Source: Candidatus Kaiserbacteria bacterium RIFCSPLOWO2_02_FULL_54_13 (GTDB taxonomy: Bacteria > Patescibacteriota > Minisyncoccia > Phycocordibacterales > Phycocordibacteraceae). From it: DNA of 26,272 nucleotides. Position numbers and translations under genes: made by a program. This document shows positions 15,132-17,110 of the stretch, in pieces. The notes beneath the pieces were generated by a model that was given only the letters and a program-made list of their open reading frames with translations, had not been told where the DNA came from and did no database searches. The stretch spans positions 702 to 26,973 of the forward strand of contig MFMI01000008.1 of assembly GCA_001783465.1 (NCBI GenBank), given 5' to 3'. Numbering within the stretch: position 1 is the stretch's first letter; each line of letters starts with the position of its first letter.

Positions 15132-15261
15132 ATTAGCTTCAGATTATCGGCCAGAAATGATAGGGTAGAGAAGTCGGGCCCCTATCTTCGCGGACTCGAT
15201 ACATACCCTTCGTTCGGCGAAAGCGAATAATTGCGGACACTCATTCGCTTTACCTCACTCA

Positions 15262-15337
15262 GGGCCTGTAGCTCAATTGGTAGAGCGCCTCATTTGCAAT
15301 GAGGAGGTAACCGGTTCGAAACCGGTCAGGTCCACCA
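15262..15337 (+). tRNA. tRNA-Ala(TGC)
   Basis: Acceptor GGGCCTG/CAGGTCC with G3:U70, anticodon arm CCTCA-TTTGCAA-TGAGG, T arm ACCGG-TTCGAAA-CCGGT, encoded ACCA. Confidence 0.96.
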
Positions 15338-15702: not shown

Positions 15703-15721
15703 GCACAAGCACAATATCACA

Positions 15722-15883
15722 TCGGGCTATCGGGAATCGAACCCGATCTATTCAGCACCATTTTCACATGTCGGGATACCCGGAATCGAACCGGGACTAC
15801 AGCCACCCCATGGCCGCGTACTACCACTATACGATATCCCGTTCAAAATGGTGCTGGACGTACTACCGGTATACTATAGCCCG
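15722..15883 (-). other. Interrupted outer tRNA-Pro scaffold enclosing tRNA-Pro(GGG)
   Basis: 5' half 15883-15859 (CGGGCTA-TA-GTAT-ACCGGTA-GTAC-G) and 3' half 15750-15722 (TAGA-TCGGG-TTCGATT-CCCGA-TAGCCCG-A) pair with each other; no anticodon loop, replaced by a 14-nt inverted repeat and a whole tRNA. Confidence 0.85.
15771..15841 (-). tRNA. tRNA-Pro(GGG), nested
   Basis: CGGGATA/TATCCCG acceptor, CGGCC-ATGGGGT-GGCTG anticodon arm, CCCGG-TTCGATT-CCGGG T arm, A73; CCA not encoded. Confidence 0.93.
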
Positions 15884-15936
15884 TTCGCCTTTTGGAGTGT
15901 AGCAAACGTCTCTCGTTTCTGGTATTTTTATTCCAC

Positions 15937-16252
15937 GGGCCTATAGCCCCTCACACGAAACAACCTCGCTATGTTCTACGTTTATGTACTTCGCAGTCGT
16001 AAAGATGAAAAGTTATATATTGGATACACAGATGACCTACGCCGCCGATTATCCGAACATAACAAAGGGTTAAGTCGTGCCACAAAGTCGCGAATCCCGC
16101 TAGATTTGGTATATTACGAGGCGTACGCATCGCAGGCTGATGCTAAAGTGCGCGAGAAGCGACTCAAGTCTTCGGCCGGTGCGAACACAGCACTCAAACG
16201 TCGATTGCGGGACAGCCTGCGATAAGGATGTTTCGTGTGAAGGGGCCTATAG
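15937..16252 (+). mobile_element. Putative GIY-YIG mini-element with inverted repeats and duplicated tRNA 5' end
   Basis: GGGCCTATAG direct repeat at 15937-15946 and 16243-16252; imperfect 26/28-nt inverted repeat 15941-15966 / 16225-16252 bracketing the ORF. Confidence 0.55.
15971..16225 (+). CDS. Small stand-alone GIY-YIG nuclease (UPF0213/YhbQ-like), 84 aa
   Basis: 'FYVYVL.S......YIGYT.DL.RR..EHN.G', 'LVYYEAY', 'A..RE..LK'. Confidence 0.93.
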   Translation: MFYVYVLRSRKDEKLYIGYTDDLRRRLSEHNKGLSRATKSRIPLDLVYYEAYASQADAKVREKRLKSSAGANTALKRRLRDSLR

Positions 16253-16316: not shown

Positions 16317-16440
16317 CTTCGCTCGTAGAGTACTACGAGCTTCGCGGTGCAAGCACCATGTCAGAAAATTACGTAGACAAACCGTGTTCACTACTTGGCG
16401 AAGTGGTGCCCCGCGAAGCTATACTAGCGGAGTGGGGCCT

Positions 16441-16680
16441 ATGTATTACGTTTATATTTTAAAAAGTGGGAAAGATGGTAGCCGATACATCGGGGTTACT
16501 GAAGATTTGAAACGTAGATTATCAGAGCATAACAATGGTGGCTCTCGCTACTCCAGCAATAAACGACCGTATAAAATAATCTGGTATTCAGCATTTGTCG
16601 TTAAAGCCAGAGCACATGAATTTGAGAAATATCTTAAGTCGAGCTCGGGGTATGCTTTTTCTAAGAAACATTTGTTATAG
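16441..16680 (+). CDS. Small stand-alone GIY-YIG nuclease, second paralog, 79 aa
   Basis: 'YYVYILKS......YIGVT.DL.RR..EHN.G', 'A..FEKYLKSSSG'; ATG 16441 preferred over the track start. Confidence 0.93.
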   Translation: MYYVYILKSGKDGSRYIGVTEDLKRRLSEHNNGGSRYSSNKRPYKIIWYSAFVVKARAHEFEKYLKSSSGYAFSKKHLL

Positions 16681-16690
16681 TGCGACACAC

Positions 16691-16801
16691 GGGCCTGTAG
16701 TTCAGCGGTAAGCAGAGCTTTCTGCTTCGGCGCTCGGCAGAAGTAAATACGCAGACGCATTCACTTCGCCTTACTTCTTGCAGTAGAACGCATCCATAGC
16801 A
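16691..16801 (+). pseudogene. tRNA-Ala-like 5' fragment with a 75-nt insertion in the D-loop
   Basis: GGGCCTG-TA-GTTC-AGCGGT [insert 16710-16784] A-GAAC-G-CATCC-ATAGCAT; D stem GTTC/GAAC restored on removing the insert; no 3' half found. Confidence 0.7.
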
Positions 16802-16823
16802 TCATGTTATTCTTCCTCACGCA

Positions 16824-16896
16824 GGGCCCGTAGCTCACTTGGTAGAGCGCCGCCATGGCATGGCGGAGGCAAGGGGATCGTAACCCCTCGGGTCCA
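16824..16896 (+). tRNA. tRNA-Ala(GGC)
   Basis: GGGCCCG/CGGGTCC with G3:U70, CCGCC-ATGGCAT-GGCGG, T arm AGGGG-ATCGTAA-CCCCT (non-canonical loop); CCA not encoded. Confidence 0.9.
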
Positions 16897-16966
16897 CAAT
16901 CGCTTGACAGCGCATGCTATACTCTGGGACGGTCGAGATTATCAGCCATTATCTCTTACGACCACC

Positions 16967-17056
16967 ATGGAACCTGAAACAACGAATACGTGCGATAAGT
17001 GTGGCCACGAGCACGTTACAGGCGAGAAGTGCTCCGAGTGCGACTGCATGGGTTAA
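16967..17056 (+). CDS. Cys/His-rich 29-aa peptide, possible metal-binding microprotein
   Basis: MEPETTNTCDKCGHEHVTGEKCSECDCMG*; tgcTATACT at 16916-16924 upstream and a terminator directly downstream. Confidence 0.55.
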   Translation: MEPETTNTCDKCGHEHVTGEKCSECDCMG

Positions 17057-17076
17057 GGGCTGATTTCTCACAACGT

Positions 17077-17110
17077 AAAGCCCCGTCCTCCGAAGTGAGG
17101 ACGGGGCTTT
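17077..17110. terminator. Bidirectional intrinsic terminator
   Basis: aaagccccgtcctc-cgaagt-gaggacggggcttt, perfect 14-bp stem between convergent ORFs. Confidence 0.88.

Follow-up and report, generated by a model that had tools for sequence, protein, structure and literature searches.

The 75-nt insert in the D-loop of a broken tRNA-Ala gene of Candidatus Kaiserbacteria bacterium RIFCSPLOWO2_02_FULL_54_13 is probably a non-autonomous, gene-less mobile DNA element, inserted at T20A21 of the native tRNA-Ala(GGC) in the context G-TA-G. The family to which it belongs is best filed as a MITE-like bacterial element with an unusual target and is found across an order of Parcubacteria (Candidatus Paceibacterota), among which ATP synthase subunit a places the organism, close to Kaiserbacteria; full-text literature searches found no description of such an element. 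The window, i.e., the whole stretch of DNA that was analyzed, covers 26,272 nt of contig MFMI01000008.1, and coordinates below are positions within it. An earlier note on this DNA, made from the letters alone, had taken the insert for a small non-autonomous element that targets tRNA genes. This main inference is partly supported, being right in kind and too narrow.

Direct reading of 16400-17100 showed that 16691-16802 corresponds to positions 1-38, the 5' half, of the genus-typical tRNA-Ala(GGC), with its D-loop split by exactly 75 extra bases and TA flanking each side. The features of the locus and of the insert are as follows.

16691..16710, + strand: relic tRNA-Ala(GGC), positions 1-21; 19 of 20 bases identical to the intact gene of relatives, in the syntenic place
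16709..16785, + strand: element copy with TA at each end; covariance model R1, 91.4 bits (the copy itself is in the R1 seed)
16710-16720, + strand: hairpin P1, AAGC/GCTT
16722-16725 with 16780-16783, + strand: closing helix, CTGC with GCAG
16726-16737, + strand: conserved strand TTCGGCGCTCGG
16736-16771, + strand: long hairpin P2, GGC-GAAGT...ACTTC-GCC
16769-16779, + strand: conserved strand CCTTACTTCTT
16786..16802, + strand: relic tRNA-Ala, positions 22-38 (direct reading, alignment, and search for the 3' half)
16803..16823, + strand: 21-nt spacer, whose last 11 nt, TTCCTCACGCA, resemble by eye the CCTCRCT strand
16824..16897, + strand: intact tRNA-Ala(GGC) (ARAGORN; Rfam tRNA, 53.4 bits)

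The relic segment before the insert reads GGGCCTGTAGTTCAGCGG-TA, that is, GGGCCTG-TA-GTTC-AGCGG-TA, and contains the acceptor 5' strand, U8A9, the D stem 5' strand, and the D loop up to T20A21; these first 20 bases are 95% identical to the opening bases of uninterrupted tRNA-Ala(GGC) genes across many genomes of the genus. The segment after the insert reads GAACGCATCC-ATAGCAT and comprises the D stem 3' strand, the anticodon stem 5' strand, and the loop. Aligned with eight relatives, in which tRNA-Ala(GGC) is uninterrupted and reads GGGCCTATAGTTCAGCGGTAGAACGCGTCCATGGCATGGACG..., the relic carries three substitutions through position 38 (A7G, G28A, and G34A). The empty site in the relatives is GG-TA-GAAC, whereas the window site is filled and has TA on both sides, so that the net inserted DNA is 75 nt (16711-16785). 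Excising these 75 bases in silico restores the GTTC/GAAC D stem, as the earlier note had read directly from the sequence. The duplication of c(g/a)gta suggested there shrinks to TA alone once the empty site is considered.

No match to the relic's 3' half (positions 39-76) was found in the window or in the genome, in agreement with the absence reported earlier. The relic occupies the syntenic place of the genus gene: the 21 nt upstream are shared with one relative, and a SWIB-domain gene that lies 18 nt past the tRNA in another relative lies ~230 nt past the intact tRNA in the window. The intact tRNA-Ala(GGC) that had been seen to adjoin the relic was confirmed by ARAGORN and Rfam. It lies 38 nt downstream of the element, is the sole intact tRNA-Ala(GGC) in the whole-genome tRNA list of the 682-kb genome, and differs in the sequence of its D and T arms from the genus-typical gene. 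Because the relic sits in the syntenic place and lacks its 3' half, and because the intact gene is the only one and has different D and T arms, the relic is the dead original gene and its intact neighbor the working replacement. The loop ATAGCAT had been said to read AGC; G34A does turn the anticodon GGC into AGC, but in a relic this reading has no significance, and the AGC anticodon and the D-loop insert are no sign of unusual decoding or splicing in the window. The spacer 16803..16823 gave no covariance-model match, and its likeness to CCTCRCT, the conserved 3' strand that precedes the tRNA in the leader-type copies described below, weakly suggests that it may be a remnant of such a copy.

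An identical filled locus is present in contigs of several independent groundwater and soil metagenome runs, and the locus is therefore no assembly artifact. In the DNA contigs of the four runs examined, all alleles were filled and no empty allele was seen; no RNA run was found to contain the locus. Two GIY-YIG mini-genes lie within the same 1-kb stretch, each between duplicated tRNA-Ala 5' ends.

A consensus fold was derived from 14 copies, on which model R1 was built. It consists of a small 5' hairpin of variable length (P1, AAGC-loop-GCTT), a closing helix in which CTGC pairs with GCAG at the very end of the element, and the P2 hairpin, which has a conserved internal loop and whose sequence is wholly replaced between copies with the pairing kept; YGCGKCGCTCGG and CCTCGCTYCTT form two conserved unpaired strands. 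Across 45 copies, 92.4% of cells were paired (versus 35 to 50% with the partner slid), 16 of 18 pairs had changes on both sides, and the covariation score was 0.52 (at most 0.08 for slid controls), all in an alignment fitted to the model, so that these counts lean toward the fold. The compensatory support for the fold is strong and comes from the family and not from a single sequence; the window insert alone folded no better than shuffles (z = -0.78). The pairings proposed in the earlier note gave way at this point: its ttctgc/gcagaa hairpin was 69% paired over the 45 copies, no better than slid controls, and the agaagtaa/ttacttct pairing is replaced in the conserved fold by P1, CTGC/GCAG, and GGC-GAAGT...ACTTC-GCC.

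Elements of this family are 75 to 105 nt long, protein-less, and 49% G+C. The two ends, TAAGC... on the 5' side and ...GCAGTA on the 3' side, do not form inverted repeats, and no longer version with an ORF was seen. An Rfam search over the window locus (E up to 10) left the element unmatched, and among 13 related loci (E up to 0.1) Rfam returned only tRNAs, one group I intron, and one group II fragment. No bulge-helix-bulge motif was seen by eye in the element.

At the BLAST level, the window insert is single-copy in its own genome, and full-length homologs with 76 to 87% identity occur in 14 other genomes of the genus among 221. Within the genus, model R1 matched 76 of the 151 genomes searched; elsewhere in the order it matched 25 of 150, a sample spanning >100 families. 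The five richest genomes carry 23, 19, 16, 13, and 11 copies. This presence in half of the genus genomes searched upholds the view of the insert as a small non-autonomous element and no conventional intron. Across the order, the sequence of the closing helix differs by lineage (e.g., TATAACCAC with GTGGTTATA), and the core GGCGCTCGG-P2-CCTCGCTTG is conserved in all of them. Near-identical copies were not seen in any one genome, so that a recent burst is not indicated. In viral contigs, the lone pattern match was a chance one inside a phage gene.

The homolog search that the earlier note had named as its refuting check returned homologs at the D-loop TA of Ala, Gln, Ile, Thr, and His-like tRNAs, the His-like gene with a group I intron; the check therefore does not refute the inference. 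Nearly all BLAST homologs lie between ...GCTCAGTTGG-TA and TA-GAGC..., i.e., at the same D-loop position. The host of a D-loop copy was a relic in every case examined, and an intact tRNA of the same kind lay ~40 to 55 nt downstream or 10 to 27 nt upstream in all but one, the exception (L038) having none in the DNA fetched. Among the loci examined, there was no case of an interrupted tRNA shown to be the sole one of its kind.

Leader-type copies sit at tRNA positions 8-9. In these, the element comes after an acceptor 5' strand with its TA, and the same 7+2 bases then open an intact tRNA; a complement of the acceptor strand stands just after P1 (e.g., CTCCCGC versus GCGGGAG), and units occur in tandem, up to three. 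Such copies leave the tRNA gene rebuilt (its first 9 nt), whereas D-loop copies rebuild nothing. A search with model R1 over 2.4 kb, with filters off, pointed to a probable diverged second copy of this form in the window genome.

15176..15270, + strand: putative diverged second copy, leader form (R1 match 15183-15270; 15.4 bits, E 0.003)

Here, 15176-15184 reads GGGCCCC-TA, followed by the element body and then by GGGCCTG-TA, the first 9 nt of the intact tRNA-Ala(UGC) at 15262-15337; strong leader-type copies elsewhere have the same architecture.

Some broader rules were tried on these copies and rejected. The nine-base duplication is seen in the leader-type copies and in one antisense copy at a tRNA 3' end; it holds only for copies at tRNA gene ends, not for those in D-loops or at stop codons. 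Guide pairing between the internal strand and the left flank likewise fails for D-loop and stop-codon copies as a general rule. Taking the element and a tRNA part as one mobile unit is at odds with the window, where the piece after the insert is native and the intact tRNA is not.

Flanks were read for 67 of the 82 R1 matches (E ≤ 0.05) in the five richest genomes and classified by a script, a heuristic that mislabels a few, so that the following counts per site class are approximate.

26 copies: on the stop codon of an open frame (≥50 codons) that runs in the element's orientation
10 copies: directly before an intact tRNA, overlapping its first 9 nt
6 copies: tRNA D-loop
4 copies: behind another copy, in tandem
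21 copies: remaining copies without an assigned class

Purines stand before 61 and after 64 of the 67 copies; the element starts with TAA in 57 of them, and 59 have TA as their last two bases. On the strand of the element, the target is therefore purine-TA-purine, a motif that covers the stop codons TAA and TAG as well as the tRNA TAG at positions 8-10 and 20-22, and 16 of the 67 copies lie on these two conserved tRNA TAGs. The idea that the element targets tRNA genes thus holds insofar as many copies occupy the same D-loop TA, but stop codons are the commonest site and purine-TA-purine is the common denominator. Because the target is asymmetric, the orientation of the element is fixed, and transcription need not be invoked; where two copies run antisense to tRNA genes, they occupy G-TA-G on the opposite strand. 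Tandem copies have the TA in common. The junctions are compatible with insertion after ...R-TA of an element that ends in ...TA, with hairpins near both ends. A 2-bp TA duplication is indistinguishable here from a crossover inside TA.

In the window genome, 259 stop codons lie in a purine-TA-purine context, versus ~2,900 such sites outside long ORFs. Stop codons, 259 of ~3,160 nondisruptive sites there, would therefore be ~8% of the harmless sites but have 39% of the copies, and the ~90 tRNA sites would be ~3% of the harmless sites but have about a quarter of the copies. This enrichment of 5 to 8 times over the available sites may reflect either a longer recognition signal or differential survival.

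At the protein-gene stop codon, the commonest site in copy-rich genomes (26 of 67 copies), the element's own first three bases, TAA, serve as the stop. C-terminal protein pieces upstream of 22 such copies were searched against the window genome, which is nearly element-free, and 16 of them have an ortholog there. Twelve of the 16 orthologs have exactly the same final residue and an ordinary stop (TAA, TAG, or, in a single case, TGA), after which the sequence is unrelated and lacks the element; three, all from one gene, end within one or two residues, and one differs. Such pairs represent filled and empty versions of the same orthologous sites. One gene carries copies of different subfamilies on the same stop codon in different genomes, and one of these copies has nearly the same P2 hairpin as a copy at a different gene of another genome (L203 and L075). 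Therefore, both movement and favored sites are indicated.

Searches for a mobilizing enzyme tied no transposase to the element. IS110 and IS630-type DDE (DDE_3) domains were found in none of the five copy-rich genomes, and reverse transcriptase, patchily distributed, was not found in the two richest. Y1 (RAYT-like) proteins of ~220 amino acids are encoded in 116 of 222 genomes of the genus. They were rejected as the partner: no convincing element copy lay within about 1.5 kb of the 13 Y1 loci, the genes were not found in 24 of 76 element-bearing genomes (including the 23-copy genome), and the genus-wide association is weak (68% versus 45%, P = 0.07, among kin that are not independent). Small GIY-YIG genes occur in all five copy-rich genomes and also flank the window locus. 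They too were rejected as the partner; among the ~60 loci of 1.5 to 3 kb that were fetched, ~40 of them around an element copy, a GIY-YIG ORF was present at only one other element locus.

In the reading that we consider probable, the element is, or was, mobilized as DNA by an enzyme acting in trans, and its insertion would duplicate the 2-bp TA or cross over within it, as in TA-ended bacterial MITEs. Insertion into the D-loop TA would have killed the native tRNA-Ala(GGC). Copies would persist where they are harmless: at stop codons the element's first A would re-create TAA and so regenerate the stop, at positions 8-9 its 3' end would supply new first 9 nt of the tRNA, and D-loop insertions, presumably lethal to the gene, would survive only beside a spare copy. 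Orthologous sites are indeed filled in some genomes and empty in others. On the other hand, the fold and the unpaired motifs are kept across the order and the enrichment is 5- to 8-fold, which fits a selected RNA role too, and harmlessness alone offers no obvious account of this conservation and enrichment. A simple TA insertion also leaves the acceptor complement of the leader-type copies and the regular ~50-nt spacing to the spare tRNA unaccounted for.

A bolder reading, which we consider rather unlikely, takes the family for a new type of mobile element with ends that repair its target, i.e., the stop codon or the first 9 nt of the tRNA. The internal segment, an exact complement of those 9 nt, would then guide target choice or would have been produced by template copying during insertion. 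Movement would proceed without a recognizable transposase in genomes of ~600 kb, possibly by a host enzyme or through an RNA or single-strand intermediate, and the structured core might double as an RNA signal at gene ends.

A different account would make the element a structured RNA selected by the host, acting in the 3'-UTR or the pre-tRNA leader as a signal for processing, stability, or termination, for example as a site for RNase III or an RNA-binding protein; spread would be secondary and the D-loop copy an accident, and such a role is compatible with mobility. The element is sense-oriented in all but two of the transcribed contexts read, but the asymmetric target already accounts for orientation. 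Its placement exactly between a stop codon and an intrinsic terminator, or directly before a tRNA, suits an RNA signal, as does the closing helix of the leader copies, which pairs with the tRNA's own acceptor strand; however, D-loop copies destroy tRNA genes, and orthologous genes lack the module in the window genome and in half of the genus. The unpaired motifs GCGCTCGG and CCTCGCTT are conserved across the order, and the helices turn over with compensation, yet covariation in a DNA palindrome can arise through template switching, with no selection needed. Similarly, G-U exceeds A-C 39 to 19 in the helices, a count biased by the model-fitted alignment. With the locus in no RNA run as a further point against it, we consider an RNA role as the primary explanation rather unlikely. 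We think it distinctly improbable that the insert is a by-product of double-strand-break repair, a homing-type cassette or scar left where tRNA genes were cut by adjacent small GIY-YIG nucleases. The paired mini-genes at the window locus, and the occurrence of such genes in all five copy-rich genomes, would fit such an origin. The near absence of GIY-YIG ORFs from the other loci fetched does not, and the stop-codon copies, the commonest class, lie far from tRNAs. Nor does GIY-YIG copy number track element copy number (4 versus 23 in genome G157 and 11 versus 11 in genome G179).

The tRNA context brings to mind two more familiar kinds of insertion. An attachment-site scar, or one end of an integrase-driven island in a tRNA gene, is very improbable: tRNA genes are classic integration sites and a partial tRNA repeat does adjoin an intact tRNA here, but the repeat is the 5' part of the tRNA and not its 3' end, no integrase ORF or island lies in the mere 38 nt between the repeats, and the unit is self-contained, 75 to 95 nt long, and also found at stop codons. 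A D-loop tRNA intron that is spliced, whether as a mini self-splicing RNA or by proteins, would be in keeping with an insertion that is precise, structured, in sense direction, and at a fixed tRNA position, and a group I intron is present in a tRNA of a relative. Yet the host gene here is truncated, with no 3' half and with its anticodon mutated, the element matches no Rfam intron or ribozyme, the D-loop copies examined are all in relics with the intact same-kind tRNA nearby in all but one case, and the same element sits at protein-gene stop codons. The relic hosts with intact spares and the stop-codon copies therefore rule out the intron reading for practical purposes.

Among known systems, the mobile-element reading brings the family closest to the small, MITE-like mobile sequences of bacteria that end in TA (Delihas 2008, PMC2229807), for instance Correia/NEMIS in Neisseria and RUP in Streptococcus pneumoniae, the latter ascribed to IS630-Spn1. 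As reviewed there, these sequences are short, carry no genes, occur in multiple copies, and form hairpins; each end is TA, and an empty site has one TA. Likewise, the elements described here are <200 bp long, have no ORF, and occur as many dispersed copies with a long hairpin in transcribed intergenic DNA; their termini are TA, one TA marks the empty site, and orthologous sites are filled or empty. Set against the size of <200 to 300 bp used to define MITEs, the family measures 75 to 105 nt and has 11 to 23 copies in each of five genomes, and its TA termini (59 of 67 copies end in TA), TA duplication, and filled/empty sites agree with the definition. In contrast, the elements have no terminal inverted repeats that match any insertion sequence, and the five copy-rich genomes have no IS630-type transposase. 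Also unlike MITEs, the left arm of the closing helix is internal, behind a separate 5' hairpin, and varies with the rest of that helix by lineage, an asymmetric internal loop is conserved, and the G+C content of 49% is not A+T-rich. Strict orientation on the asymmetric purine-TA-purine target, with a concentration on stop codons and the conserved TAGs of tRNAs, further sets the family apart.

REP/REPIN elements (Nunvar et al. 2010) and hairpin-ended IS200/IS605 derivatives form a second comparison. RAYT (Y1 HUH) transposases mobilize REP/REPIN elements, and IS200/IS605-derived elements insert 3' of a fixed short motif without duplication, with hairpins near both ends and guide-site pairing. 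The present elements resemble both in being short, structured, strand-specific repeats without terminal inverted repeats, with hairpins near both ends and the target motif reproduced at the far end, and many genomes of the genus (116 of 222) have RAYT-like Y1 genes. Unlike REP/REPIN, however, the Y1 genes here are unflanked by copies and missing from 24 of 76 element-bearing genomes, including the richest, copy numbers are in the tens and not hundreds, and there is no inverted-pair arrangement. A further comparison is with integrative elements and islands that insert into tRNA genes and use their own end to restore them. Leader-type copies do so as well, rebuilding the displaced first 9 nt and leaving the gene intact, but it is the 5' end and not the 3' end that is rebuilt, by a unit of 80 nt with no integrase and no cargo, and D-loop copies, including that of the window, rebuild nothing. 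With group I introns (RF00028) and archaeal bulge-helix-bulge introns, the D-loop copies share a structured insertion in sense direction at a fixed tRNA position; they differ in their length of 75 nt, in having no catalytic core and no Rfam match, in their broken hosts backed by intact copies, and in belonging to an element that also occurs outside tRNAs.

Patescibacteria have some of the smallest genomes among free-standing cells and few classical transposons. Half of the genus genomes nevertheless carry this element, in up to two dozen copies and on the most conserved short words of the genome. The family may serve as a tractable example of parasite persistence in a streamlined genome, through insertion at places where the sequence that it destroys is regenerated. 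The element would also explain odd tRNA loci (split, nested, duplicated, or with apparent introns) that tRNA finders and annotators miscall or miss. One relative has a nested arrangement in which the element splits a complete outer tRNA-Ala(UGC) and carries a second, intact tRNA-Ala(UGC) in its P2 loop.

The interrupted tRNA-Gln(CUG) copies combine a conserved tRNA remnant with the element, the gene-less hairpin-forming repeat. The interrupted copy retains its acceptor stem (TGCCAGA/TCTGGCA) and D-arm and, 3' of the element, runs on as a small hairpin (GGAC-loop-GTCC) whose loops vary. Because the same shell was found at tRNA-Gln(CUG) loci of seven genomes (L045, L047, L048, L051, L052, L070, and L225), it has been either inherited or maintained. 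The tRNA-Ile-like relics at loci L038, L043, and L040 carry a conserved stretch (GCGACCAGTTTTGTCCAAGAGCGAAGCGATTGGAAACAAAAC...) after the T-arm GGTCC, common to three genomes. This stretch is located in the 3' flank of D-loop copies (those at the TA of a tRNA D-loop, splitting a tRNA relic) and looks like an additional insertion into the same tRNA-Ile relic.

Leader-type copies, which directly precede an intact tRNA at U8A9 and overlap its first 9 nt, also occur in series:

L061:1150-1660 (G016:C19), minus strand: three tandem leader-type copies ahead of a single tRNA

The three tandem copies have identical 9-nt boundaries (GCGGGAG-TA) and differ in that each has its own P1 (the small 5' hairpin) and its own P2 (the long hairpin) sequences. 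A fourth element copy at this locus lies ahead of the adjacent tRNA-Met.

Nested arrangements of tRNAs were seen both in a fetched locus and in the window:

L024:1480-1760 (G077:C3): outer tRNA-Ala(UGC) split by an element copy
Window 15770-15841, within 15720-15890, minus strand: intact tRNA-Pro(GGG)

At L024, the outer tRNA-Ala(UGC) is complete, and the element copy interrupting its D-loop TA forms a long hairpin with a 15-bp stem, the loop of which consists of a spacer and a second, intact tRNA-Ala(UGC). In the window, inspection of 15720-15890 by eye indicates that apparent halves of a second tRNA-Pro stand on either side of the intact tRNA-Pro(GGG), one flank reading CGGGCTA-TA-GTAT...GTAC and the other a T-arm and acceptor 3' strand, so that this locus, too, looks like a tRNA inside another tRNA.

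The window also holds protein-coding genes beside tRNA-Ala pieces:

Window 15937-16252: GIY-YIG mini-gene, 84 aa
Window 16384-16700: GIY-YIG mini-gene, 80 aa

Each lies between two tRNA-Ala 5' ends, one a short copy and the other fuller. GGGCCTATAG occurs twice in the region of the first mini-gene (~15946 and again at 16243), and GGGCCTAT (~16434) overlaps the start codon of the second. In its logic, this layout resembles that of the small element, with insertion near U8A9 and the gene start kept.

Beside the interrupted copy at L017:1620-2211 (G101:C11), an intact, His-like tRNA (anticodon loop CTGTGG) contains a group I intron that scores 79 bits against Rfam RF00028. The 5' exon is separated from the intron core by an ORF whose Cys/His pattern is HNH-like. 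Y1 HUH proteins (~220 aa) with intact HxH and Y motifs form a diverse paralog family at L084-L096 (genomes G023, G179, and G207), with up to 8-11 copies per 0.6-0.7-Mb genome; their divergence is too high for recent IS copies.

Two tRNAs have unusual T-loops:

Window 16868-16884: tRNA-Ala(GGC), T-loop GGGGATCGTAACCCC
G000 contig C31:2057-2132: tRNA-His, T-loop GGGATCGTGACCC

Both have A at position 54 and U at position 58 instead of the usual T54/A58.
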